Part shown: piece after piece, positions 906 through 12,440 of the stretch
How the letters are laid out: each line of letters begins with the position of its first letter
How positions within the stretch are numbered: the stretch's first letter is position 1
NCBI GenBank assembly: GCA_046726415.1
Contig: JBKPAK010000052.1
Coordinates: 1-12,440, forward strand
Source of the DNA: Candidatus Methylomirabilota bacterium
GTDB taxonomy: Bacteria > Methylomirabilota > Methylomirabilia > Rokubacteriales > CSP1-6
Length of the DNA stretch: 12,440 nt
Direction of reading: 5' to 3'
Notes under the pieces: model-generated
Told to the model about the DNA's origin: nothing
The model's database searches: none
Seen by the model: the letters and a program-made list of their open reading frames with translations, nothing else
Made by a program: the position numbers and the translations under genes

Positions 906-1382
906 TTAGGAGCGGCGCCAGAGGCCGCGCTCGGCCTGTCGGGCGTCGCGCTGCAGCTTGACGAGGAGCTCTTGATGGCGGACGTTCGGCGGGATCGTCA
1001 TCACCTGGGCGTATCCGCGGCGCACGAGCTCGGCGTTGACCATTGTCTCGCCTATCCACACGTAGGCGAGGAGTCGCCCGTAGCGGTCGCGCTCCTGCAC
1101 GTCGAGCTCAAGTCGCACTTGGCGCCCTGCGACGAGGGCGCGATTAAGCGCGGCGGCCTCTCGTCCCCCCGGCTGCTCGCCTTTGCTCGGATGATGAACT
1201 TCCGGAGTGTTCACGCCAATGTAGCGGACCTTCTCCACCCGACCGGCGACGCGGACATGAATGGTGTCGCCGTCCACGACCTTGACCACTTCTCCGGCCA
1301 CTCCGGCCCGCGCCGTCGCGATGGCGGTGACGGCGAGGCAGGCCAGGACCAGAAGGAGGACGAGCGAAACAGCCCGGCGCAT
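906..1382 (-). CDS. Thermonuclease (staphylococcal nuclease, SNase-like) with N-terminal signal peptide
   Basis: SNase motifs VVDGDTI, VRYIGVNTPE, DRYGRLLAYV, NAELVRRGYA and ERGLW are present. The N-terminus MRRAVSLVLLLVLACLAVTAIATARA looks like a signal peptide. Confidence 0.95.
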   Translation of the reverse strand: MRRAVSLVLLLVLACLAVTAIATARAGVAGEVVKVVDGDTIHVRVAGRVEKVRYIGVNTPEVHHPSKGEQPGGREAAALNRALVAGRQVRLELDVQERDRYGRLLAYVWIGETMVNAELVRRGYAQVMTIPPNVRHQELLVKLQRDARQAERGLWRRS

Positions 1383-1518
1383 GGCCCCACCGTTTCATTG
1401 GGGTCTGCATGGTGTCAACTTTCGGAGACACGTTCCTCTTACCCACCACCCCCATGCCGCAACGCCTCGCCTGCGGAAGCGCTACCGTCGGTTGCGCGCG
1501 CTGCTGAGACGATCGCGC

Positions 1519-2496
1519 CTATGCCGTTGCCGGGATCAGATTGAGCGGGACTTCGCCCCGCGCGGTCCGGTGAATGTTCTCGGCGATGAGCGTGGCCCGC
1601 GCCTCCATCATCCCCTCGGTCCAGCCAGAGACGTGCGGCGTCATGAGCACGTTGGTCAGCTCATGGAACGGGTGGTGCGCGGGGCGGGTAGGGCCTGGGG
1701 CGTCGGGATATCGATACCAGACGTCCAGAGCCGCGCCCGCGATCGTCCGATCGGCCAGCGCCCGATAGAGCGACTCCTCCTCGACGATCTCGGCGCGCGC
1801 CACGTTGACGAGGAAGGCGGTCGGCTTCATCGTTCGCAACTGCTTGCCGGCGAGGAGACCGCGGGTGGCTTCCGTGAGCGACAGCGCGACGAGCAGGTAG
1901 TCTGAGCGCGACAGCACCTCGTCGAGTGCGTCGAGGCCGCCGAGAAGAGCCAGATCGTCCATCGCCGATCGCCCGACGTCGCGGCGGATGGCGCAGATCG
2001 CCATGTCGAACGCCCGGGCGCGCCGGGCCACGCACTGACCGATCCGCCCGTAGCCGAGAATGCCGAGCGTCTTCCCGGCCAGCTCTGGCCAGACCGGCGG
2101 GGGCGGTACCGACACCGCCCACTGGCTCTCCCAGTCTCCTCGTCGCAGGCTGGCGTCCACGCGGCAGAAGCCTCGGTTCAGGGCCAGCATGGCCCCGATC
2201 GCATACTCGGCGATGCCGACCTCGTGGCCGTAGGCATTCGCCAGCCACGCCCCGGCCGGAAGCGCGGATCGGTCGATCCGGTCGAGGCTGGCGCCGGGCA
2301 CCTGCACGAGCTTCAGCCGTGGAGCCGATGCCCCCATCGCGCCCGTAAACCCCATGGTCACCAGCACGTCGACGTCGGGTAGCCGCGGGATGAACCTGCC
2401 CTCCTCCACGATGACGTCGCACGGAATGGCCAGACGAAGCCGGACGTGTTCCGCGAGGCGAGCGGCGAAGACTCCGGTGAAGGCGACGCGCAGCAT
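1519..2496 (-). CDS. D-isomer-specific 2-hydroxyacid dehydrogenase
   Basis: Motifs GILGYGRIG (NAD binding), LVNVARAEIVEE, AGAALDVW and LMTPHVSG. Start placed at ATG 2496 (MLRVAFTG) because AAAGGAGG lies just upstream (2503-2510, minus strand). Confidence 0.92.
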   Translation of the reverse strand: MLRVAFTGVFAARLAEHVRLRLAIPCDVIVEEGRFIPRLPDVDVLVTMGFTGAMGASAPRLKLVQVPGASLDRIDRSALPAGAWLANAYGHEVGIAEYAIGAMLALNRGFCRVDASLRRGDWESQWAVSVPPPPVWPELAGKTLGILGYGRIGQCVARRARAFDMAICAIRRDVGRSAMDDLALLGGLDALDEVLSRSDYLLVALSLTEATRGLLAGKQLRTMKPTAFLVNVARAEIVEEESLYRALADRTIAGAALDVWYRYPDAPGPTRPAHHPFHELTNVLMTPHVSGWTEGMMEARATLIAENIHRTARGEVPLNLIPATA

Positions 2497-2551
2497 CGGT
2501 GCCCTCCTTTCCGATATTGCGAATAATCCTCGGCGCGGCGCGCCGGGCATT

Positions 2552-2572
2552 CAATTCCCTGGCGGGGAATTG
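2552..2572. promoter_or_regulatory. Palindromic operator candidate between divergent dehydrogenase and regulator
   Basis: Perfect 8-bp inverted repeat CAATTCCC-N5-GGGAATTG, further flanked by CGGGCA (2544-2549) and TGCCCG (2574-2579). It is AT-richer than its surroundings. Confidence 0.65.
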
Positions 2573-2662
2573 CTGCCCGCCGGTGCGCGCGTACGTTCGG
2601 GCTCGTGAGAGGTGGACGCCGCGCGCAGGTGCCTCGATGGCGATAGACTCGAGGCCCGGGCG

Positions 2663-3484
2663 ATGACGAATCAGACGGTCAAGAGCTTCGGCTCCCGCCT
2701 GCGCTGGTGGCGCGAGCGCCGTGGCCTGTCCCAGCTCGAGCTCGCCGCTGCCGCATCAACCACCCAAAGACACGTGAGCTTTCTGGAGTCCGGGCGCACC
2801 TCGCCGAGCCGCGAGATGGTGCTGCGCCTCGCCGCCACGCTCGACGTTCCACTCCGGCAACAGAATGCACTGCTCCTGGCCGCGGGCTTTGCCCCGGCCT
2901 GGCATGAGCGCGATCTCTCCGCCCCGGAGCTTGCCAAGGTCAACAGCGCGCTGGACTTCATGCTGGCGCAACAAGAGCCGTATCCGGGTTTCGTGGTCGA
3001 CCGGCGTTGGAACGTGTTGCGCGCAAATCTCGGGGCCCAACGGCTCACCGAATATCTCACCGGACCGGCGCCGGCGCCGCCGCCCTCAGAGCCCGTCAAT
3101 CTGGCCGAAGCGCTGGTGTCTCCCGACGGCCTCCGGCCGTTCATCGACAACTGGGAAGATGTCGCCCTTTACTTTCTTCGCGGCGTCCAGGCCGACGCAC
3201 TCGCTGACGGCACGGCCGAAACGGCCCAGCTCCTGAAGCGACTGCTTGCATTTCCTGGCCTTCCCGCGCTGTCGCAGGTCGTGCCGCCGGGAGAAGGGCA
3301 AGCACCGGTGCTGGCCATCCACTTTCGCCGTGATCAGACGTCGCTCCGCCTGTTCACGGCGATTGCCACGCTCGGCACACCCCTCGACGTGACAGTGCAG
3401 GAGATCAGAGTGGAGGGTTTCTTCCCGGCCGACGACGAAACCGCGCAGATCCTCCACGAGTGGGCGGGTCGCGCGAAGACCTAG
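2663..3484 (+). CDS. XRE-family HTH transcriptional regulator with MmyB-like ligand-binding domain
   Basis: N-terminal HTH_3-like region LRWWRERRGLSQLELA...RHVSFLESGR.SPSREMVLRLA, then QEPYPGFVVDRRWNV and TLGTPLDVTVQEIRVEGFFPAD. Start placed at ATG 2663 (MTNQTVKSFG). Confidence 0.9.
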   Translation: MTNQTVKSFGSRLRWWRERRGLSQLELAAAASTTQRHVSFLESGRTSPSREMVLRLAATLDVPLRQQNALLLAAGFAPAWHERDLSAPELAKVNSALDFMLAQQEPYPGFVVDRRWNVLRANLGAQRLTEYLTGPAPAPPPSEPVNLAEALVSPDGLRPFIDNWEDVALYFLRGVQADALADGTAETAQLLKRLLAFPGLPALSQVVPPGEGQAPVLAIHFRRDQTSLRLFTAIATLGTPLDVTVQEIRVEGFFPADDETAQILHEWAGRAKT

Positions 3485-3573
3485 GCGCGGCCGCGAGGCG
3501 GCGGTCAGATCATCGCGGAGTGCCTCGGGTGTCCGACGCGCGCAGGGGCTCGGGCGGGGCCCACTGTTCCCGA

Positions 3574-4209
3574 CTACTTCCGGTTGCCGCTCGAGAGGGC
3601 GGCGGCCACGCCGAGGCCGATGTACATGCCGCCGGACACCCACCGCCCGCCCGCCAGGAACCGAGCGTTCGCGCGCAGCCATCGCCGCGCCGCGCCAGCG
3701 CTGACCGCGTAGAGTCCGTCGGTGAGCACACCGAGTGACACGAAGAGCAACCCCAGGGCGAGGATCTGCGCGGCGACGGCGCCCCGTGCGACGTCGACGA
3801 ACTGGGGGAGGAACGCAAGGAAGAACAGCGCCGTCTTCGGATTCAGGACGTTGACCACGATGCCATCGACGAATGCGCGGTGGAGCGGGGCGTAGTCGGC
3901 GCATGTCGTGGTTTCGGCATGGCGGTGGAGGACACGGCGCACCCCCAGATAGACGAGGTAGGCGGCCCCCAGATACTTCACCACGCCGAACGCGGTGGCC
4001 GAGGCGGCGAGCAGAGCCGACAGGCCGACCGCGGCCGCGGCAATGTGGACGAGGGTGCCGACGTGCACGCCGAGCATGGAGATCAGTCCCGCGCGGCGCC
4101 CCTGATCGATGCTCCGGGCGACGATGTAGAGCACCGCCGGTCCCGGTGTCAGCAGCGGGACGAGAGCCGCAGCGACGAAGACGCCGAGGCTCGACCAGTC
4201 CGGAAGCAT
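3574..4209 (-). CDS. LysE/RhtB-family amino acid exporter
   Basis: Motifs TPGPAVLYIV, VKYLGAAYLVYLG and NVLNPKTALFFLAFLPQFV. Start at ATG 4209 (MLPDWSSL) with GAGGAG about 10 nt upstream. Confidence 0.93.
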   Translation of the reverse strand: MLPDWSSLGVFVAAALVPLLTPGPAVLYIVARSIDQGRRAGLISMLGVHVGTLVHIAAAAVGLSALLAASATAFGVVKYLGAAYLVYLGVRRVLHRHAETTTCADYAPLHRAFVDGIVVNVLNPKTALFFLAFLPQFVDVARGAVAAQILALGLLFVSLGVLTDGLYAVSAGAARRWLRANARFLAGGRWVSGGMYIGLGVAAALSSGNRK

Positions 4210-4278
4210 GTACGGACATCTCCTCGTGGCTCGATCTGGGCGCGTCGGCCCGCGCCAGGACAGGTCAAGTGTACCCAA

Positions 4279-4296
4279 GCCCGGCAGGAGCCGGGC
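4279..4296 (-). terminator. GC hairpin just after the glmS stop (possible terminator or processing hairpin)
   Basis: GCCCGGC-N4-GCCGGGC forms a perfect 7-bp stem 9 nt downstream of the glmS TGA. Only TT follows on the minus strand, so it is not a classic intrinsic terminator. Confidence 0.35.
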
Positions 4297-4305
4297 GGTC
4301 CACGT

Positions 4306-6087
4306 TCACTTCACCGTGACGCTCTTCGCGAGGTTGCGCGGCTTGTCGGGATCGTGGCCGCGTCGGCGGGCCAGGTCGTACGCCAGCAGCTGAGCGGGAA
4401 CGGCGTTGACGATGGGCGTGGCCGGCCCGAGATCCGCGACGGGAATGTGATGGTCGAAGGCCTCGTGCGGCTCGGGCGAGAGCCCGATGAGCATCGCTCC
4501 GCGCGCCTTCACCTCCATGGCTCCGGAGAGGATGTCCTCGCGCGTCTCGTCGCGCGGGGCCACGACGAGACACGGGGTTCCGGGCTCGATCAGGGCAATC
4601 ACCCCGTGCTTCAGCTCGCCGCCGGCGAAGCCCTCGGCATGCAGATAGCTGACCTCCTTCACCTTGAGCGCCGCCTCCAGGGCGAGAGGGTAGCTCGGAC
4701 CCCGCCCAATGACGAAGAGATGCCCGTGACTCTGCAGGCGCTCGGCGAGCTGGCCGATCAGCCCACGCCGGTGGTCGGTGAGCAGGCGCTCGATTTCATC
4801 AGCCGCGCGTTGCACGAGGGCCGCGCCCAGCTTGGACTGACCGGCCAGCGCATGCGCCACGCGCAAGACGACGGCGAGCTTGGCGGTGAAGCTCTTGGTA
4901 GCGAGCACACAGCGCTCGGGACCCGCCCCCAGCGGCACCGGGCAGTCCGCGAGCCGCCAGAGGCTGGAGCCCTCGACGTTGACGAGAGCGGCGATCAGGG
5001 CGCCGCGGCGCCGGGCGGCCTGGACCGCCTCGATGACGTCGATGGTTTCGCCGCTCTGGGAGAAGGCCACGACGAGAGATCCCTCGTCGACGAAGTTGCC
5101 GAGAAGGGCAAACTCCGAGGCCGGGGCAAAGGTGACCCGCCGGCCGGCGATTCTGGCCATCAGGTACTGGGCGGCCAGCGCGGCGTGGCCGGCCGTGCCA
5201 CAACCGACGACGACCACGTCCCTCGTGTCGCGCAGCAAGGCGGCGAACCGCTGAACGTGCGTGGCCCAGCCGGTGGCGATGCGGCGCAGCACCTCCGGCT
5301 GCTCGTGGATTTCCTTGGTCATAAAGTCGGAATAGCCGCCCAACTCGGCGGCCGTGGCCTCCCACTCGACCTCGGCGATCGCCGGAGTTACCTCCTGGGT
5401 CGTCGCCAAGTCGAAGAGGCGCACCGAGGTCGGATCGAGGAGCGCTGCCTGGCCGTCCTCGACGAAGGTGACTCGGCGCGTGTGCTCGAGCAGGGCGCTG
5501 TAGTCCGAGGCGATCAGATTGCCCCCTTCGCTCCAACCCAGCACGAGCGGAGAACCATTCTTGGCGGCGGCCAGCTGTCCGGTACGCACGTCCAGAACGG
5601 CGATGGCGTTCAGCCCGTGGAGCTGGCGAAAGGCCGCCATGACCGCCGTCACCAGCTGATCGGGTCCGGCCGGTGTCCGGGCCAGGCAATCCTCGAGCAG
5701 ATGCACCACGACCTCGGTGTCAGTCTCGGAACGCATCCGATGGCCGGCCCGAACGAGTGGTTCGCGCAGTTCGCGGTAGTTGGACACGATCCCGTTGTGG
5801 ATGAGGGCGAGGCGCCCAGAGCAATCGAGGTGCGGATGCGCGTTGCGCTCCGTCACCCCCCCATGGGTGGCCCACCGCGTGTGCCCGAGACCGATGGCGC
5901 TGGCCGGCAGACCGGTGACGGCATCGCCGATCTTGCCGACCCGCCTCTCGACGGCCACGCTACCGTGGCGCGCCACCGCGATGCCCCATGAGTCGTAGCC
6001 GCGATACTCGAGCTTTCTGAGCCCGCGCAGGACGATGCCCGCCGCTTCGTCGCCGTCGCTCCCAAGATACCCAAAGATCCCGCACAT
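4306..6087 (-). CDS. glmS: Glutamine--fructose-6-phosphate aminotransferase (isomerizing)
   Basis: N-terminal MCGIFG (catalytic Cys1), LEYRGYDS, GHTRWATHG, SETDTEV, SQSGET, ELKHG and C-terminal PRNLAKSVTV. True start is ATG 6087 with AGAGGA upstream; the ORF-track extension to 6243 is UTR. Confidence 0.98.
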   Translation of the reverse strand: MCGIFGYLGSDGDEAAGIVLRGLRKLEYRGYDSWGIAVARHGSVAVERRVGKIGDAVTGLPASAIGLGHTRWATHGGVTERNAHPHLDCSGRLALIHNGIVSNYRELREPLVRAGHRMRSETDTEVVVHLLEDCLARTPAGPDQLVTAVMAAFRQLHGLNAIAVLDVRTGQLAAAKNGSPLVLGWSEGGNLIASDYSALLEHTRRVTFVEDGQAALLDPTSVRLFDLATTQEVTPAIAEVEWEATAAELGGYSDFMTKEIHEQPEVLRRIATGWATHVQRFAALLRDTRDVVVVGCGTAGHAALAAQYLMARIAGRRVTFAPASEFALLGNFVDEGSLVVAFSQSGETIDVIEAVQAARRRGALIAALVNVEGSSLWRLADCPVPLGAGPERCVLATKSFTAKLAVVLRVAHALAGQSKLGAALVQRAADEIERLLTDHRRGLIGQLAERLQSHGHLFVIGRGPSYPLALEAALKVKEVSYLHAEGFAGGELKHGVIALIEPGTPCLVVAPRDETREDILSGAMEVKARGAMLIGLSPEPHEAFDHHIPVADLGPATPIVNAVPAQLLAYDLARRRGHDPDKPRNLAKSVTVK

Positions 6088-6180
6088 GCGCTGTCCTCTC
6101 TTCGGGGCCGGTACGCGCGATCCAGACTCACGACGGGCAGTCGAACGCCGCCGCTGGCCTCGGGGAGGGGGAAGGGAATG

Positions 6181-6244
6181 GCGAGACGGGTCAGGAAGAA
6201 CCCGCCGCACCTCGCGAGACGGGTCAGCACAACCCGCCGGCACC
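6181..6244 (-). repeat. Two-copy 33-bp-period direct repeat forming tandem hairpins in the glmS 5' UTR
   Basis: GCGAGACGGGTCAGGAAGAACCCGCCGCACC (6181-6211) and GCGAGACGGGTCAGCACAACCCGCCGGCACC (6214-6244). On the mRNA each folds as GGCGGGUU-loop-GACCCGUC. Confidence 0.8.
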
Positions 6245-6378
6245 CTGGGTGGCCTTTGTCAGCGCGTCACCGCACTGGTTTGCTCCACCCATCACGACCG
6301 TGCCCGCCGAGGGACCACCCGCCGAATAGTTCGATCGGTCCCTGCCTCGTCATCCGCCCGAAGGCGGACCTGGCGCTT
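6239..6378 (-). ncRNA. glmS glucosamine-6-phosphate-activated ribozyme (riboswitch)
   Basis: Minus strand reads AAGCGCCAGG-[TCCGCC TTCG GGCGGA]-TGACGAGG-CAGGGACC-GATCGAACTATTCGGCGG-GTGGTCCCT-CGGCGGGCACGGTCG...TGGGTGG-AGCAAACCAGTGCGGTGACGCGCTGACAAAGG-CCACCCA-GGGTGCC. The hallmark core motifs (AGCGCC, GACGAGG, ATCGAA..TTCGGCGG, AAAC..GGTGAC..ACAAA) are present in order, upstream of glmS on the same strand. Confidence 0.95.
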
Positions 6379-6450
6379 GTCCTGCGCGACCCCTCGATCC
6401 CCTCCGGATCGCCCTCGCGCCCCTCCTTCCCGGTCTTGATCGCTGAGACG

Positions 6451-6478
6451 ATCTTACCAGCCGGCCCGGCGAGCGCAA
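6451..6478 (-). promoter_or_regulatory. Putative sigma70-type promoter for the glmS ribozyme-glmS transcript
   Basis: Minus strand TTGCGC (6478-6473), 16-nt spacer, then TAAGAT (6456-6451) with an extended -10 TG (TGGTAAGAT). It lies about 70 nt upstream of the ribozyme cleavage site. Confidence 0.55.
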
Positions 6479-6561
6479 GCGCCCTGGCGCGATCAGCACC
6501 CTCACTCCGGTGTCCCGACGTGCGTGTCTCATTCACCGAGTACGGCGCGCCGACCGCGCGC

Positions 6562-6585
6562 GGATTGCCAGGGGCAAAGCAATCC
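6562..6585. promoter_or_regulatory. Inverted repeat upstream of the DUF4394-like gene (possible TF site)
   Basis: GGATTGC-N10-GCAATCC, perfect 7-bp arms, in the divergent intergenic region. Confidence 0.35.
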
Positions 6586-6661
6586 ATTCCTCCGCACGTC
6601 CGCGTATCCCCTCGTGAAGCGCGCGCCACAACGCAACAACGCACAGTCAAGGAGGGAGCAA

Positions 6662-7645
6662 ATGGAAGCTGAGGTTCGGATCGAAAGGCATCTTGGCAGG
6701 TACGTGCGATCGGCGGTGCTGGGGCTGGGCGCTCTGGCGATCGTGGCCTCGCCGAGTCAATCAGCGGCGACCGGGGCCTCGCCTTTTCTGTCCCTGGGGA
6801 GCGACAACTTCTGTAGCCAGATCTTCGTGACCAACACCCAGAACCAACTGCTGCGGATCGGTCGCCCCCGCGAGTTGCTCGGCGAGGATAACTTCTTCTC
6901 GCGGCTCTTCGGGGATACGGTGTTCGTCCGATCGCGCCAGAGCATCACCGGTCTGGCGGCCGGGGAAAGCCTCGTGGGCATCGACGTGCGCCCGGCCAAT
7001 GGGGTTCTCTACGGATTGGGCCGCATCGGCACACAGGCCGTCGCCCAGCTCTACACCATCGACACTGGCACGGGCGAGGCGAAACCCGTGGGGCCGCGCG
7101 CGATTCCGCTGAACGGTGTCGCCTTCGGCGTCGATTTCAATCCAGTGCCGGATCGCCTCCGGATCGTGAGTGATGCCGGCCAGAGCATTCGAGTCAATCC
7201 CGACAATGCCGAGGTGGTGGGCACGGACACGATGATCGCGTACGCCGCGATGGGGGACCCGAACTCGGGCCGTGCGCCCCGGGTGGTTGCCGTCGCCTAC
7301 ACCAACCCGGACACCGACGGCCAGACCAACACCGTGCTTCACGACATCGACGTGGCTCGCGGGGCCGATCCCGATCGCGCCGGGGACGGTCTGGCCATTC
7401 AGGTTCCACCGAACGCGGGAACGCTCAACTCCGTTGGCGCCCTGCGGGTGGATGTCGGTGACGTCGGCGGGTTCGACATCGGGCCCGACAACGAGGCGTT
7501 CGCGGCTCTTCAGCAAGTGGGAAGCGCGTTCTCGCGGCTCTACTCCATCGATCTCGCATCGGGCGAGGCGACGAATCTGGGCCGGATCGGTGGAGGCGAA
7601 GTGGTCACCGGGCTGGCCATCGGCCTCGGGCCGCGGTGCAAGTAG
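6662..7645 (+). CDS. Secreted DUF4394-like (beta-propeller-type) protein
   Basis: Strong SD AAGGAGG before ATG 6662 and a signal-peptide-like N-terminus (RYVRSAVLGLGALAIVASPSQSAA). Family motifs GESLVGIDVRPANGVLYGL, FGVDFNPVPDRLRIVS, VAYTN, QVPPNAGTL and GFDIG. Confidence 0.85.
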   Translation: MEAEVRIERHLGRYVRSAVLGLGALAIVASPSQSAATGASPFLSLGSDNFCSQIFVTNTQNQLLRIGRPRELLGEDNFFSRLFGDTVFVRSRQSITGLAAGESLVGIDVRPANGVLYGLGRIGTQAVAQLYTIDTGTGEAKPVGPRAIPLNGVAFGVDFNPVPDRLRIVSDAGQSIRVNPDNAEVVGTDTMIAYAAMGDPNSGRAPRVVAVAYTNPDTDGQTNTVLHDIDVARGADPDRAGDGLAIQVPPNAGTLNSVGALRVDVGDVGGFDIGPDNEAFAALQQVGSAFSRLYSIDLASGEATNLGRIGGGEVVTGLAIGLGPRCK

Positions 7646-7656
7646 GCCTGACCACG

Positions 7657-7726
7657 TGGGGGCCTCGATATGACCCCCAAACCCCCGCGCGTTCAGAGCG
7701 CCCCGGCGAAGCCGGGGCGCTCCTCG
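7657..7726. repeat. REP-like double-hairpin extragenic element, copy 2
   Basis: TGGGGGCCTCGATATGACCCCCAAACCCCCGCGCGTTCAGAGCGCCCCGGCGAAGCCGGGGCGCTCCTCG, with a perfect 12-bp stem 7696-7707/7711-7722 and GAA loop. Colinear with 461-533 and likewise between convergent genes. Confidence 0.8.
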
Positions 7727-7759: not shown

Positions 7760-9025
7760 CTACTTGTGGCTGGCTCTCTCGCGGGTGCGCTGGAGCATCG
7801 AGCGCACGAGCGTCGCCACCGCCTCGCCCTGCACCTGGTTCACCACCCACGTGGGGAGTGCACCGCCGGGATCGCTGAACACCTCATAGCGCACCGCGGC
7901 CCCCCGGCCCTCCGGTCCGGGCTCGATCAGCCAGCGTCCCCGGATCGACGCGATGCGAATGTGGCTCCGGTCGGGAGGTGGGCCGGCCTCGTTGGCGGTC
8001 ACGAAGACAATCTCGTAGCGCTGGGCCTCGGTATCCACCCGCCTCTGGAGGCGGACTGTGTAGTCGCGATCCCTCGCCAGCGGGATCTCGATCTGCTCGT
8101 ACGCCACCCGCTCGTCGCCCGCTTCCGCGAGCAGATCGAGTCGCTTGAGGTAGGGCACGAACTGAGGATGGTCCTGCTGTCTCCAGACCGTGTCGAAGAT
8201 CGCAGCGGGAGAGAGCGAGCTCTGGGTCGTCGCGCGGACCTCGTAGAACGCCGAGCCTTCGTTGGCCCGGCGCTCGATGAGGAGCCCGTCCTTGTTGGAC
8301 AGGACCTGCCATTCGGTGGCGGACGCAGCCAGCGCAGACAGGATGACCACCAGAAGTGCGGCGATCAGCCCCGCCGATGTCGGGAAGGCGCGGCTCATCC
8401 GGCCGTCGGCGGTATCACCGTCTGGGGCCCCGCCCGTGGTGCGAAAGATGTGATCCCATAGCGGAGAGCTGACACCCCAGCGCGCCTCCGGAGTCGCGAA
8501 ATGATGAAGCATGTGCCAGCGTTGCAAGAATCGCCCGAGCCGCGTGCGAGGCCGGCCACGGTGCGCGGCGACGTGGATGTAGTCGTAGGCGAGATAGCCG
8601 ATCAGGAAGAAGGCGAAGAAGGGCTCGACATACCGCGATCCCAGCAGGGCGCGGAACACGCCGTACAAGGTTGCCGCCGCGATGATGGCGGGGAGCGGCG
8701 GCATCACCAGGCGCGTGGGATCGGCCGGAGTCTCGTGATGGACGCCGTGCACGATGAACTGCAGCCGCCGCCGTATCGGCGTCGTGGCCTCGAGATGGAA
8801 CACGAAGCGATGCAACAGGTATTCCGTCAGGGTCCAGACGAGGAGGCCCGCCCCCGCGAGTAGGACCATCGTGCCAGCCCCCAGCCGAGGGGCCATGGTG
8901 GAGGACCACAGCAACCAGGCGATCACCGGCACCCAGAGCAGGAGCGCGGCCAGCGGATGAGCGTGTGAGAGGCGCTCGAGCAGGCGGTTCTCGAAGAGCC
9001 GGACGCTCCAGACTGAGGTTCGCAT
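7760..9025 (-). CDS. Fatty acid hydroxylase (FA2H/Scs7-like, sterol desaturase superfamily) fused to a C-terminal START/SRPBCC lipid-binding domain
   Basis: His boxes EYLLHRFVFH, VHGVHH, YDYIH and WHMLHHF, plus RLFENRLLERLS, RLVMPP and WGVSSPLWDHIFRT. After a hydrophobic linker come START motifs EWQVL..KDG, ARDRDY, RGRWLIEP and DPGGALPTWVVN. Start is 9025 or 9049. Confidence 0.85.
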   Translation of the reverse strand: MRTSVWSVRLFENRLLERLSHAHPLAALLLWVPVIAWLLWSSTMAPRLGAGTMVLLAGAGLLVWTLTEYLLHRFVFHLEATTPIRRRLQFIVHGVHHETPADPTRLVMPPLPAIIAAATLYGVFRALLGSRYVEPFFAFFLIGYLAYDYIHVAAHRGRPRTRLGRFLQRWHMLHHFATPEARWGVSSPLWDHIFRTTGGAPDGDTADGRMSRAFPTSAGLIAALLVVILSALAASATEWQVLSNKDGLLIERRANEGSAFYEVRATTQSSLSPAAIFDTVWRQQDHPQFVPYLKRLDLLAEAGDERVAYEQIEIPLARDRDYTVRLQRRVDTEAQRYEIVFVTANEAGPPPDRSHIRIASIRGRWLIEPGPEGRGAAVRYEVFSDPGGALPTWVVNQVQGEAVATLVRSMLQRTRERASHK

Positions 9026-9126
9026 GCTGGGCCCCCGCCCAACATACATCGGGCCGGTGGCGGTTGCCTACAAATCGCCCCTCCGGCGGCCGCACGAAGA
9101 GTCACCGTGGACGGCGCGTTTCTTTG

Positions 9127-9132
9127 TATCAT
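9127..9132 (+). promoter_or_regulatory. Putative -10 element for a leaderless transcript of the reductase-SPT-GNAT operon
   Basis: TATCAT in a T-rich patch, with 7 nt between it and the GTG at 9140. No SD precedes that GTG. Confidence 0.45.
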
Positions 9133-9139
9133 CGTCGCG

Positions 9140-10135
9140 GTGCGCACCCTTTTCCTCACCGGCGGCACCGGGTTCGTCGGGAGCCATGTTGCGCAGGAGT
9201 TCCTGGCCCGGGGTTGGAATGTCCGAGCGCTGGTGCGCCGGCCCGAGCGCGCGAGCCTGCTCCCGCCCGGCGTGGAGCCGGTGCGCGCCGACCTGCTCGA
9301 TCCGGCCCACTATCGCAGCGACTTGAGAGGCTGTGCCGCCGTCGTCCACTGCGCCGGCGCCACTCGTGCCCTCAGCCTCGCCGAGTTTCGCCGCACGAAC
9401 GTGTCCGGCGCCGAGGCTGTCGCCCGGGCCGCCAGCGAGTCGTGTCCCGACGCCATGTTCGTCTACGTCTCGTCGCAAGCGGCTGCCGGTCCCTCCCGGA
9501 CCGGGGCGCCAGTTCGGGAGAGTGATGCGTCCGCGCCCGTCTCCTGGTACGGGCGATCCAAACTGGAGGGCGAGCTGACCGTGGCCCGTCACCACCTCGG
9601 CCGCTGGTGCGTGGTGCGCCCGTCCGTGGTGTATGGTGCAGGTGACCCCGGCCTCATCGCCATGTTCCGCGTCGTCGCGCGCGGGGTGGCGCCGCTCCTC
9701 GCAGGGAGCCGTCGGCGCGTGCAGCTCCTCGCCGCCGAGGATCTGGCGAGGATCCTCTTTGCCACCGCGCAGCGACCCGACTTGCATGGCCGGCGAGCCT
9801 TCGCGGCCGGCGACACCGTGAGCGTGGAGGAGCTGGTCCGCGCGGTCGCCGCTCTTCGGACACCGCGCGCGCGCGTCATCGCGGTTCCCGGCCCTGCTGT
9901 CCGCGTCTTGGGAGTGCTCGCGTCCCTCCAAGGGGCGCTCACCCGCACAGCCTCAGCCTTCAACCTCGACAAGGTCAAAGAGATGCTCCAGCCCGACTGG
10001 CTTTGCGACAGCGAGCCCTTCCTGCGGGATCTGCAGGTCACCACGGCCATTCCCTGGCAGGAGGGCATCCGACACACTTGCCGCTGGTACGTGCATGCGC
10101 GGTGGCTGGCGCCCACTGCGTTCGCGGGCGTATGA
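9140..10135 (+). CDS. NAD(P)-dependent epimerase/dehydratase-family extended SDR; candidate ceramide (3-oxo) reductase, CerR-like
   Basis: Motifs TGGTGFVG, VVHCAG, VYVSSQAAAGP, catalytic YGRSK and VRPSVVYG. Start placed at GTG 9140 (MRTLFLTGG). The specific function is inferred from gene context only. Confidence 0.85.
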   Translation: MRTLFLTGGTGFVGSHVAQEFLARGWNVRALVRRPERASLLPPGVEPVRADLLDPAHYRSDLRGCAAVVHCAGATRALSLAEFRRTNVSGAEAVARAASESCPDAMFVYVSSQAAAGPSRTGAPVRESDASAPVSWYGRSKLEGELTVARHHLGRWCVVRPSVVYGAGDPGLIAMFRVVARGVAPLLAGSRRRVQLLAAEDLARILFATAQRPDLHGRRAFAAGDTVSVEELVRAVAALRTPRARVIAVPGPAVRVLGVLASLQGALTRTASAFNLDKVKEMLQPDWLCDSEPFLRDLQVTTAIPWQEGIRHTCRWYVHARWLAPTAFAGV

Positions 10136-10170
10136 CGGCGAGGAACGTTCGCGCATCGGAGGAGGTGTTC

Positions 10171-11403
10171 ATGCCGGACGCTGCGGCACCCCCGGTGGAC
10201 ATCGCTCCAACCCCTCTGCCCGTGTTCGACAAGTGCCGGGTGCTGACCGACCGGGTGGCGGAGGCACGGGCGGCCGACGCGTACTGCTACTTCCGGCCGA
10301 TCGAGTCGGCGCAGGAGCCGGAAGTCGTGGTGGGCGGGCGGACGCTGGTCATGCTGGGGTCGAACAACTACCTCGGGCTCACCAACCACCCGAAGGTGAA
10401 GGAAGCGGCCATCCAGGCGGTGCGGCGCTACGGCACCGGATGCGCGGGCAGCCGGCTACTGAACGGAACGCTCACCATGCACGAGGCGCTGGAAGAGAAG
10501 CTGGCGCGCTTTGTCGGCAAGCCGGCGGCGGTGACCTTCTCCACCGGCTTTCAGGTGAACCTGGGGGCGATCTCCTGCCTGCTCGATCGCGGCGACGCGG
10601 TGTATCTCGACAAGCAAGATCACGCCTGCATCATCGACGGGGCGCGCCTGTCGTTCGCGCACATCCGCAAGTTCGCCCACAACGACCCAAGCGAGCTGCG
10701 GCGCCTCATGGCGGCCGAGCGCGGCGCCCGCGGGCGCCTGGTCGTGGTGGACGGCGTGTTCTCGATGGAAGGCGACATCACCCCCCTGCCGGACATCGTG
10801 AAGGTGGCGCGTGACTACCAGGCCGCCGTCATGGTGGACGATGCCCATGGCCTCGGCGTCCTCGGGCGCCGCGGACGCGGGACTCCCGAGTATTTCGATC
10901 TCGTGGACGAGGTCCACCTCATCATGGGCACGTTCTCTAAGTCGCTGGCCTCCATCGGCGGCTTCATCGCCGGGGACCGCGACGTGATCACCCACATCCG
11001 GCACACCGCCCGGAGCCTCATCTTCTCCGCCGCGCTCGCCCCGGCGGCCGCTGCCGCGGCGGGAGCGGCCGTCGACATCATCGACAGCGAGCCGGAGCGC
11101 CGGGAGCAGCTCTGGCGCAACGCGCGCTTCCTCAAAGGCGGGCTGTCGAGCCTCGGCTTCTGCACCGGCGACTCCCAGACCCCGGTCGTTCCGATCATCG
11201 TGGGCGACGACGACCGCGCCTTCGCGATGACGCGGCGGCTCGATGAGGAGGGGGTCTTCGTCAATCCGGTCATTTCGCCGGCCACGCCCCCCGGCCGGGC
11301 CCTCCTCCGCACGAGCTGCATGGCCACCCACACGGAGGCTCATCTGTCGCGGGCGCTCGAGGCCTGCGCCCGGGTCGGGCGGGAGTTCGGCATCATCGCG
11401 TAG
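10171..11403 (+). CDS. spt: PLP-dependent alpha-oxoamine synthase, most likely serine palmitoyltransferase
   Basis: Motifs GSNNYLGL, YGTGCAGSRLLNGT (the LNGT variant of bacterial SPTs rather than BioF/Kbl), DHACIIDG, DGVFSMEGD, DDAHG and GTFSKSL (PLP lysine). SD GGAGGAGGTG precedes ATG 10171; an alternative in-frame ATG at 10132 overlaps the upstream TGA. Confidence 0.8.
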   Translation: MPDAAAPPVDIAPTPLPVFDKCRVLTDRVAEARAADAYCYFRPIESAQEPEVVVGGRTLVMLGSNNYLGLTNHPKVKEAAIQAVRRYGTGCAGSRLLNGTLTMHEALEEKLARFVGKPAAVTFSTGFQVNLGAISCLLDRGDAVYLDKQDHACIIDGARLSFAHIRKFAHNDPSELRRLMAAERGARGRLVVVDGVFSMEGDITPLPDIVKVARDYQAAVMVDDAHGLGVLGRRGRGTPEYFDLVDEVHLIMGTFSKSLASIGGFIAGDRDVITHIRHTARSLIFSAALAPAAAAAAGAAVDIIDSEPERREQLWRNARFLKGGLSSLGFCTGDSQTPVVPIIVGDDDRAFAMTRRLDEEGVFVNPVISPATPPGRALLRTSCMATHTEAHLSRALEACARVGREFGIIA

Positions 11404-11414
11404 GCGCTTGGCCG

Positions 11415-12440
11415 ATGGCCGGCGAGCTGCGTCTCGAGGAGCTGTCACGCGACCGGGCGGGTCTGCGCCGGTTCCTTCGCGTTCCCTACGGGGTCTACCG
11501 CAACGATCCGCACTGGGTGGCGCCCCTGCTGAGCGACCGCCGCCAGGTGCTCGGTCCGGACAACCCCTTCTTCCGCCACGCGCAGATGGCTCTCTGGGTG
11601 GCGACGCGCGCCGGCCGCGACGTCGGCAGCGTGGCGGGGATCGTCGACGAGCATCACAACGCACGCCACCGCGAGACCACTGCCTTCTTCGGGTTCTTCG
11701 AGTCGGTGGACGACATCGCGGTGAGTCAGCTGCTACTCGATGCGGTGCGCGGGTGGGCCCGCCGCCTCGGGATGACGCGTCTGCTGGGCCCCATGAACCC
11801 GTCGATCAACGAGGAGTGCGGGCTGCTCGTCGAGGGGTTCGACGCGCCCCCAGTCGTCATGATGACCTACAACCCCCGTTACTACGCGGAGCTGTTTGCC
11901 AAGGCCGCGCTCAGGCGGTGCAAGGACCTGCTCGCCTACGATGTGGCCCTGGATGGCAGGCTGCTCGCGCGCCTCGAGCGCCTTGCCGCGCGGGCGCTTG
12001 ACCGCGCCGGCGGGGTGACCGTTCGACCCGTCGCCAAGCGCGCGTTCGCGCGGGATCTCGCGAAGATCCAGGAAGTCTACAACACCGCCTGGGAGGACAA
12101 CTGGGGCCACGTGCCCATGACGCCGGCCGAGATCGAGTTCATGGCCAGACGGCTCGCACCGCTGCTGGAGGAAGAGCTAGTCCGGCTGGCCGAGACGAAG
12201 GAGGGGGCGCCGGTGGGCTTCATCCTGGGTATGCCCGATCTGAACGAGCCTCTCGGCCGGCTTCGCGGCCGCCTCTTCACTCCGCGGTTGGCTCTGACTC
12301 TGCCCTACCTCATCAGGTTCAGGCGTCCGCGGTTTACGCGCGTGATCGCGCTGGGGGTCAAGCGCGAGTATCGACAGCGCGGCATCGACGCGGCGCTGAT
12401 CGCGCCCTGCCTGCGAGCGATGTTGCGCGGCGGCTACCAG
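11415..12440 (+). CDS. GNAT-fold N-acyltransferase, bacterial ceramide synthase (bCerS)/YghO-like; 3' end outside window, absent from ORF track
   Basis: Manual translation from ATG 11415 is open for 342 codons to the window end: MAGELRLEELSRDRAGLRRFLRVPYGVYRNDPHWVAPLL...NPFFRHA...AFFGFFESVDD...GPMNPSINEECGLLVEGFD.PP.VMMTYNPRYY...YNTAWEDNWGHVPMT...PDLNE...LGVKREYRQRGIDA (acyl-CoA-binding motif A). Confidence 0.88.
   Translation, partial: MAGELRLEELSRDRAGLRRFLRVPYGVYRNDPHWVAPLLSDRRQVLGPDNPFFRHAQMALWVATRAGRDVGSVAGIVDEHHNARHRETTAFFGFFESVDDIAVSQLLLDAVRGWARRLGMTRLLGPMNPSINEECGLLVEGFDAPPVVMMTYNPRYYAELFAKAALRRCKDLLAYDVALDGRLLARLERLAARALDRAGGVTVRPVAKRAFARDLAKIQEVYNTAWEDNWGHVPMTPAEIEFMARRLAPLLEEELVRLAETKEGAPVGFILGMPDLNEPLGRLRGRLFTPRLALTLPYLIRFRRPRFTRVIALGVKREYRQRGIDAALIAPCLRAMLRGGYQ

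Follow-up and report, generated by a model that had tools for sequence, protein, structure and literature searches.

A putative ceramide cassette with an Scs7-type hydroxylase and an export-signal-bearing START protein in Candidatus Rokubacteria

In the closest described systems, those of Caulobacter crescentus and Escherichia coli BL21, the ceramide pathway draws on three enzyme families: a serine palmitoyltransferase (SPT; Spt, CC_1162 and ECD_02854), an N-acyltransferase (bCerS or aca, CC_1154 and YghO) and a reductase (CerR or epi, CC_1164 and ECD_02852), as listed in PMC9386255 and PMC11087976, the former of which gives yghO as the orthologue of the ceramide synthase gene CC_1154. According to PMC11334938, the ceramide pathway genes of Bacteroidota are not clustered, and sphingolipid producers are predicted in about 40 phyla. 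Here we describe a locus on contig JBKPAK010000052.1 of assembly GCA_046726415.1, the 7.6-Mb, 352-contig, 98% complete genome of a member of Candidatus Rokubacteria (phylum Methylomirabilota). The window analyzed is this entire contig (C52), 12,440 bases long, and the metagenome runs that contain its stretch come from soil. All three families are encoded side by side in the window, and E. coli Spt, YghO and epi each find their best match in the 7.6-Mb genome within one 3.3-kb operon. Together with a divergently transcribed Scs7-type hydroxylase and START-domain protein, these genes probably form a (dihydro)ceramide cassette with aerobic hydroxylation, one that would yield 2-hydroxy-dihydroceramide. 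A role for the START protein as a periplasmic ceramide carrier is a far more tentative proposal.

The locus and its enzymes

On the plus strand, genes for an extended short-chain dehydrogenase/reductase (SDR; 9140 to 10135), an alpha-oxoamine synthase (10171 to 11403) and a GNAT-like protein (11415 to 12440) follow one another with gaps of 35 and 11 bases, as tightly packed as a first-pass annotation of the sequence had described them; the four open reading frames (ORFs) and the motifs that it named are all present. The fourth ORF, on the minus strand (7760 to 9025), encodes the hydroxylase and the START domain and is separated from the SDR gene by 114 bases (9026 to 9139) that may serve as a shared promoter region. 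Inspection of the sequence revealed no sigma-70 promoter or terminator consensus at the cassette. The divergent layout is kept in relatives, and the five-part order is conserved at 72 to 79% DNA identity over 4.5 to 4.7 kb in five other loci (L010, L011, L015, L177 and L206), so the arrangement is no product of chance.

The oxoamine synthase has an ATG start preceded by GGAGGAGG and carries the motif GSRLLNGT and a lysine in GTFSKS. Of the 17 NCBIfam models that match it, SerpalmtaseCFB (NF047600) ranks first at 532.3 bits, followed at a distance by a BioF/Kbl subfamily model (413), the beta-proteobacterial SPT (398), Kbl (393), BioF (391) and ALAS (245). A PDB sequence search gave the same picture: the best solved relative is the SPT of Sphingobacterium multivorum (432 bits, E 1.5e-128), ahead of Thermus-type Kbl/AONS (316 bits) and cysteate acyltransferase (245 bits). 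Compared with E. coli BL21 Spt, the protein aligns over residues 40 to 386 of 390 at E 2.8e-79 (database size 1e8), which passes the Spt homologue filter of PMC11334938 (E <= 1e-70, coverage >= 70%), applied here with one query instead of the 273 in that paper. We placed the enzyme in a quick IQ-TREE phylogeny of 41 rows, with two BioF and two Kbl sequences and no ALAS or Caulobacter rows, for which the careful search is unfinished. In this tree, it belongs to a 12-row clade nested among SPT-like proteins of Acidobacteriota and Planctomycetota (support 100), and a wider SPT-like group of 30 rows that takes it in (SH-aLRT 93) adds proteins of Bacteroidota and Verrucomicrobiota. Its neighbor there is the assayed E. 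coli BL21 SPT, whereas BioF and Kbl are placed apart. Model scores, PDB ranking and phylogeny agree with the initial assignment of this gene as an SPT-type enzyme, and its best model is that of the Bacteroidota (CFB) kind.

The GNAT-like ORF, with the motifs DPHWVAPL, GFFES and NWGHVP, runs into the contig end and is cut after 342 residues, some 31 to 35 short of the 373 to 377 found in close relatives. The protein has no Pfam, NCBIfam or PDB sequence match, and the same holds for YghO. Between the two there is 32% identity over 309 columns (E 1.3e-56, residues 15 to 318 of 380, database size 1e8), which passes the bCerS filter of PMC11334938 (E <= 1e-30, coverage >= 50%) with YghO rather than Caulobacter bCerS as the reference. 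Its structural model (pLDDT 88) finds its best Foldseek matches among tandem GNATs (7q3a and 2wpw; E 1e-8, TM 0.59). YghO similarity and fold thus bear out the view that this is a bCerS-type protein. In two genomes of the host genus, L010 (9499 to 10522) and L011 (9095 to 10119), we saw bCerS genes frameshifted at different codons (near 256 and 214); long-read error is the likely cause, as both assemblies consist of few contigs with other frameshifts.

The SDR is less firmly placed. Its gene starts with a GTG, as in relatives, with a further in-frame GTG at 9107. The protein matches Pfam Epimerase (E 3e-25), retains intact TGGTGFVG cofactor and YGRSK catalytic motifs, and is the best match in the genome of E. 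coli BL21 epi, the protein at the ECD_02852 position (29.6% identity, 105 bits versus 93.6 for the next paralogue). A FastTree phylogeny follows the same path as those of the SPT and bCerS, with the Rokubacteria clade inside Acidobacteriota and Planctomycetota (support 100). Two results weigh against a firm assignment. Against E. coli epi, its single reference here, the SDR reaches E 2.1e-25 and misses the published CerR filter (E <= 1e-30, coverage >= 50%), and the group that it forms with epi has 82% local support and includes an unlinked paralogue from the host genome. No signal peptide is seen at the conserved start. The initial CerR assignment is the weakest of the three; the enzyme is a candidate reductase of 3-keto(dihydro)ceramide or ketosphinganine, CerR-like by context and consistent with CerR.

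The first-pass annotation had also identified a lipid hydroxylase, which proves to be of the Scs7 type. The 421-residue minus-strand ORF contains an FA_hydroxylase domain (PF04116; residues 59 to 196, E 4e-17) followed by a Polyketide_cyc/START domain (residues 232 to 415). The hydroxylase portion (8426 to 9025, about 200 residues) has one significant PDB match, the yeast ceramide hydroxylase Scs7 (4zr1, E 2e-24). Its HxxxxH, HxxHH, HxxxH and HxxHH boxes are present, and histidines 72, 77, 93, 96, 97, 151, 155, 171, 174 and 175 are invariant in all six aligned sequences, as expected of a putative membrane di-metal fatty-acid 2-hydroxylase. No Cyt-b5 match was found in the ORF, which begins 16 residues before the Scs7-aligned region. 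In other Rokubacteria (G113, G144 and G145), bCerS homologues have more distantly related FA_hydroxylase genes within 3 kb. One of these loci (L270, G113:C66:2952-6518) is an operon of an SPT-like domain, a classical SDR, an FA hydroxylase and bCerS, in which the SDR presumably resembles the eukaryote-type ketosphinganine reductase. Elsewhere, we met proteins that fuse a classical SDR to START (P0208), a fatty-acid desaturase to the hydroxylase (P0018, P0021 and P0027), and the hydroxylase to an Mpo1-like 2-hydroxy-palmitate dioxygenase (P0057).

The START portion could be translated on its own from an internal methionine at 8398 (7760 to 8398, minus strand, 212 residues). This methionine opens a stretch of basic and then hydrophobic residues ending in A-S-A (8318 to 8374), which is followed by the START domain and coincides with the strongest hydropathy peak of the 421-residue ORF (residues 218 to 236). 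The stretch, which the first-pass annotation did not mention, is a putative signal peptide, or an internal membrane or export segment when the protein is fused. At least about a hundred stand-alone START proteins of some 212 residues were found, the nearest of which (P0085, 214 residues) is 94% identical; a hydrophobic N-terminal core was scored in 94 of 96 such homologues by a crude Kyte-Doolittle test that skipped 10 others. Many homologues (P0085 to P0199) bear the automatic label "ribosome-associated toxin RatA," which looks like a mislabel at the level of the fold, given their predicted export signals. PDB sequence matches include human PCTP (1ln1, E 6e-13) and Xanthomonas 3qsz. The model (pLDDT 90) has a full-length helix-grip fold that is nearest to 3qsz (Z 24.0), with STARD4/5, CERT, STARD3 and StAR tied at Z 21 to 22 and aromatase/cyclases lower, at Z 15 to 18.

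Taken together, these assignments suggest a pathway in which the SPT would join serine to an acyl-thioester to give a 3-keto long-chain base. The absence of a linked AcpR/AasR pair makes acyl-CoA the probable donor. The bCerS-family protein would attach the N-acyl chain and the SDR would reduce the 3-keto group, in either order, and the Scs7-type enzyme, located in the inner membrane, would use oxygen to 2-hydroxylate the acyl chain of the amide. The START protein, exported via its own signal helix, may bind the lipid product outside that membrane. Our confidence in the cassette covers the pathway with its hydroxylation; the reactions and membrane topology are extrapolated from family knowledge, and the ligand of the START protein is speculative. 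If the pathway is correct, the compact five-part cassette would be a convenient kit for 2-hydroxy-ceramide production in a bacterial host.

Alternative readings of the START protein and the core

We suggest, tentatively, that the START protein does in bacteria what CERT does in eukaryotes and ferries (hydroxy)ceramide, or an N-acyl amide lipid akin to it, outward through the periplasm. The strongest competitor of this reading, which in our estimation falls only a little short of an even chance, accepts the ceramide core and holds that the START gene merely travelled with the cassette, or encodes an exported protein that binds lipids generically, and that it does not handle the product. Gene neighborhoods speak to both. 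At E <= 1e-10 the START homologues number 1,814 representatives. We counted 80 metagenome loci of the START clade, of which 61 were informative and 19 too short, with search patterns that favored close homologues. The first gene upstream of START was the hydroxylase in 20 loci, the operon SDR in four, a distant bCerS paralogue in 16, a PqiC/Mla gene in 13, and none that we recognized in eight, seven of which belong to the most distant subgroup. START therefore adjoins the hydroxylase, the operon SDR, a bCerS paralogue or an MCE gene in 53 of the 61. The 13 PqiC loci are mlaE-mlaF-mlaD-pqiC operons, three of them with a bCerS paralogue in front as well. Against a passenger role, START persists beside the operon where the hydroxylase has been lost (L192, L193, L207 and L239) and beside the bCerS paralogue where the SPT and SDR have been replaced. 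In another family, a START of 24% identity precedes SDR-SPT-bCerS by about 3 kb (L149 and L150, one genus and hence one event); this argues in the same direction, as do the repeated fusions to the hydroxylase described below.

Several observations weigh on the other side. In fold, the START protein is no closer to CERT (Z 21.7 over 184 residues, 2.2 A, 14% identity) than to sterol-binding STARTs (Z within 1), and in sequence it is nearer to PCTP. The CERT residues that contact the ceramide headgroup are given in PMC13525633 as Arg442, Glu446, Gln467, Tyr482, Asn504 and Tyr553, and the sequence alignment with CERT (E 0.13) is too weak for a reliable reading of these positions. The loci with a bCerS paralogue and those with Mla genes collapse into one cluster at 80% identity, a single lineage, and few independent lineages support the START link. 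MCE operons are common in the host genome. A second host START (G000:C230:4449-9022, L148), 66% identical and with a signal-like N-terminus, sits behind pqiA-pqiA-pqiB-pqiC on a contig with no ceramide gene; these names reflect sequence resemblance to PqiABC, the PqiC being related to the PF03886 protein of L218. In one genome (G155) the hydroxylase/START arm and the ceramide arm are on different contigs. Finally, START was found in four of 50 other bCerS-bearing genomes, in a survey that covered 50 of the 80 loci, and its distant homologues (about 30% identity) adjoin unrelated genes, on which grounds we rejected the idea that START is a general companion of bCerS.

Doubt about the core itself takes the form of a second alternative, namely, that its product is an amide lipid resembling ceramide but not derived from serine, whether a 1-deoxy form built on alanine or glycine or one with another amino-acid base. 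The 532 bits scored by the SPT fall below the curated cut-off of NF047600 (640), and PMC11334938 describes deoxy- and unusual ceramides as abundant in nature, with SPT able to use alanine and SPT-like enzymes possibly accepting other amino acids. The context of the bCerS family is also not specific to ceramide. Among the best 80 bCerS loci from other genomes, the flanking sequence retrieved includes an SPT-like gene in 38 and none in 42, though many of the latter flanks are short, and one clade of the family, within the same START clade, adjoins not an SPT but a PigE-like fusion of an aminotransferase and an acyl-ACP-reductase (ACP, acyl carrier protein). Set against this, the alignment with the S. 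multivorum SPT covers residues 38 to 414 gap-free or nearly so, the active-site region with its GSRxLNGT and GSNxYLGL stretches included, and cysteate acyltransferase trails that enzyme by a wide margin (245 versus 432 bits). A non-serine product is therefore unlikely in our view, and serine is the substrate that we retain.

The PigE-like loci deserve description in their own right. In L183 (1715 to 5729) a bCerS paralogue (31 to 40% identical) is followed by a fusion of about 930 residues that joins a class III aminotransferase to an acyl-ACP-reductase-like domain, and the same pair occurs in 12 further loci. The best models for the fusion are PigE (NF053554), PDB 4ppm and cyanobacterial AAR, with the domain order reversed relative to PigE. 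START, or mlaEFD-pqiC-START, lies divergent from this pair, in a single lineage. The gene content suggests an SPT-free route from acyl-ACP through fatty aldehyde and fatty amine to an N-acyl amine, which would mimic ceramide. This locus was not found in the genome of the window.

A third alternative, very improbable, is that the fusion of hydroxylase and START in the window is an assembly error. The junction lies in a G/C run where one base would split the ORF, and of 20 metagenome loci with both genes, 17 have them in different frames and one in frame with a stop, leaving two that are fused. Separate genes, with a hydroxylase stop and a START start, are also found in five related genomes (L010, L011, L015, L151 and L152). 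Yet contigs from two runs of two studies, X1 (possibly the source sample) and X3, agree with the window at every base across the junction, and four more fused proteins, together with that of L018, have junctions that differ from it. On a second X3 contig, about 92% alike, one extra base stands behind 8423, which shifts the reading (as followed by hand) into the neighboring frame, ending in PRR-stop; in L010 the corresponding reading ends in ARR-stop. The stretch from 8399 to 8425 is thus a former stop and spacer, now read through in frame, and the fusion is real DNA that arose by the recent loss of one base. The divergent hydroxylase-START gene of the first-pass annotation is indeed one ORF with both domains, although most relatives have two genes and the fusion is derived. 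An ancient conserved fusion was rejected on the same evidence of the old stop and unfused relatives, along with the scatter of fusions over the START tree.

Judging from that tree, in which fused proteins occupy four or more separate places and the window's sits beside a stand-alone protein, hydroxylase-START fusion has had at least four separate origins, and all six fused proteins aligned retain the hydrophobic export helix. Scs7-type domains end on the cytoplasmic side, and a fusion may be tolerated because a signal helix placed after that C-terminus would still carry START outward. The START domain of a fused protein would lie outside the membrane, tethered or cleaved. One of the fused cassettes, which has no SDR, is shared with identical proteins by a bin titled Gemmatimonadales (L018) and two metagenome contigs (L187 and L188); its SPT nests among those of Rokubacteria, suggesting transfer or misbinning.

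The remaining alternative, that the oxoamine synthase is a BioF or Kbl for biotin synthesis or threonine breakdown with unrelated neighbors, has next to nothing left in its favor: it is the sole member of its family found in the host genome and reaches some 390 bits with the BioF and Kbl models alike, but the SPT model is 140 bits higher, the tree separates it from them, no BioB was found in the 98% complete genome, no bio or tdh gene lies beside it, and its linkage to bCerS and the SDR is conserved.

Distribution, accessory genes and the surrounding contig

Of the phylum's 251 genomes, 71 contain a bCerS homologue; among the 104 that are near-complete, the figure is 35. Coordinates allowed a count for 61 of the 71, and in 45 of these an oxoamine synthase lies on the same contig within 10 kb; most of the other 10 were without a listed match. 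These loci have several origins. Besides the window's type, there are loci with the order SDR-spt-bcerS-PAP2 (f8, G018) and Rhodobacteria-type loci in f13, another family of the host's class in which 12 of 20 genomes have a bCerS match. The latter carry acpR and lptFG paralogues, and the SPT of one (G093) passes NF047599 (632 versus 500). Their gene set is that of the Caulobacter-type locus, with bcerS, epi, acpR, spt, lptF/G paralogues and a nucleotidyltransferase (L154 in G093 and L163 in G101).

The window's type, comprising the closest SPTs with hydroxylase and START, is restricted to six of the 251 genomes in four genera. Because it is so patchy, with three of three genomes in the host genus and one of 17, one of 10 and one of four in the others, the pattern points to a cassette that is mobile or often lost. 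Among the papers listed by a literature search, none reported sphingolipids in the soil-dwelling Rokubacteria or in Methylomirabilota, and the main text of PMC11334938, as distinct from its supplementary phylum list, does not name the phylum. With about 40 phyla already predicted, one further uncultured phylum is a modest gain.

The first-pass annotation had proposed the downstream contig as the place to look for ACP, acyl-CoA synthetase and headgroup genes. The genes after bCerS vary between related genomes (HpnR, a methionine-synthase-like gene, an LLM-like gene and others), so the cassette appears to end with bCerS, and the locus includes no gene for an ACP, an acyl-ACP synthetase or a headgroup enzyme. 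The 35-base gap before spt holds no ACP, and the locus lacks the arrangement of the Rhodobacteria type, with acpR directly in front of spt and aasR close by. In the host genome, an L154 AcpR query had no match and E. coli AcpR had one weak match on another contig; three Aur1-like PAP2 queries and one nucleotidyltransferase query were without match; and LptF/G queries recovered a single pair, on C114, with no LptF2/G2/C2 paralogues. At spt loci of other Methylomirabilota and Acidobacteriota, a PAP2_3 gene (Aur1/IPC-synthase-like) convergent with bcerS is a candidate headgroup transferase (L149:12057-12953, L150:12545-13420, L012:3110-3964 and L086:9095-9979); it was not found in the window's genome. 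The presence of LpxC, LpxB and BamA makes the host, by its gene content, a diderm with lipid A genes. Sphingolipid as a replacement for lipopolysaccharide was rejected on account of these genes and the patchiness of the cassette.

The contig appears to be correctly binned. Its tetranucleotide correlation with the genome is 0.989, exceeding the median of contigs of like size, and its first gene, an FtsX-type permease (1 to 459), has a counterpart at 1.3 kb from the cassette of another genome in the genus, so misbinning is unlikely. A search of contig ends found no overlap that would extend C52 within the assembly; contigs of runs X3 and X4 continue 519 bases beyond the window end. Between permease and cassette (906 to 7645) lie genes absent from this place in L010, encoding an SNase-like nuclease, a 2-hydroxyacid dehydrogenase, an MmyB-type regulator, LysE, a DUF4394 protein and a second GlmS that is 41% identical to the C313 copy. 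The region from 500 to 890 is an intergenic tandem repeat with a unit of about 81 bases in four copies in register. A related GC-rich hairpin (7696 to 7722) has a REP-like core with 11 exact copies on eight contigs.

Comparison with described systems

The SDR/SPT/bCerS core represents a known pathway, and the differences from its Caulobacter and E. coli forms lie in the details. The window's SPT is CFB-type, no AcpR/AasR pair is linked to it, and neither LptF2/G2/C2 paralogues nor cpg headgroup genes were found. The gene order SDR-spt-bcerS is that of Acidobacteriota loci, unlike Caulobacter and E. coli. Whereas Caulobacter CerR is described as periplasmic (PMC11087976), the window's SDR lacks a signal peptide. 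The S. multivorum SPT (PDB 3a2b and 8guh; NF047600) is the best solved relative of the window's SPT, which lies below the curated cut-off of that family.

The accessory arm departs further, and an Scs7-type hydroxylase with an exported START protein was not found described. With yeast Scs7p (PDB 4zr1) and mammalian FA2H, the window's hydroxylase shares the catalytic domain and the pattern of ten histidines; it differs in having no cytochrome b5 domain and in its coupling or fusion to a START gene. Myxococcus xanthus reportedly has a homologue that acts on sphingolipids; no paper on it came up in our literature search. The Caulobacter hydroxylase, by contrast, is of a different family, the DesA type, and is encoded elsewhere in the genome (PMC11324152).

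The START protein has the full-length helix-grip fold of CERT/STARD11, PCTP/STARD2, STARD4/5 and Xanthomonas 3qsz. It differs from CERT in carrying an export signal, in its low identity and in scoring equally well with sterol-binding STARTs. Bacterial STARTs are characterized in PMC13525633, a 2026 review, as generally short (about 140 residues) and cytosolic, in contrast to the full-length, export-signal-bearing protein of the window; the words "periplasm," "signal peptide," "Mla" and "hydroxylase" are absent from its text. A literature search linking START domains to sphingolipids and the periplasm listed two papers, both of them about lipid transfer in eukaryotes. How sphingolipids cross the periplasm beyond LptF2/G2/C2 is described as an open question in bioRxiv 10.64898/2026.04.12.717747 and PMC11324152. 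In place of that Caulobacter route, the START carrier could in some lineages work with a MlaE-MlaF-MlaD-PqiC or PqiABC (MCE) system. If so, it would constitute a second, undescribed bacterial route of sphingolipid export, in which the recurrent fusion of hydroxylase and START would serve as a hand-off. Where Caulobacter relies on LptF2/G2/C2, then, the window may offer an assayable export candidate: a small, soluble protein that shares the fold of CERT and PCTP, carries an export signal and is tied to both ceramide-synthase-family genes and MCE transporters.

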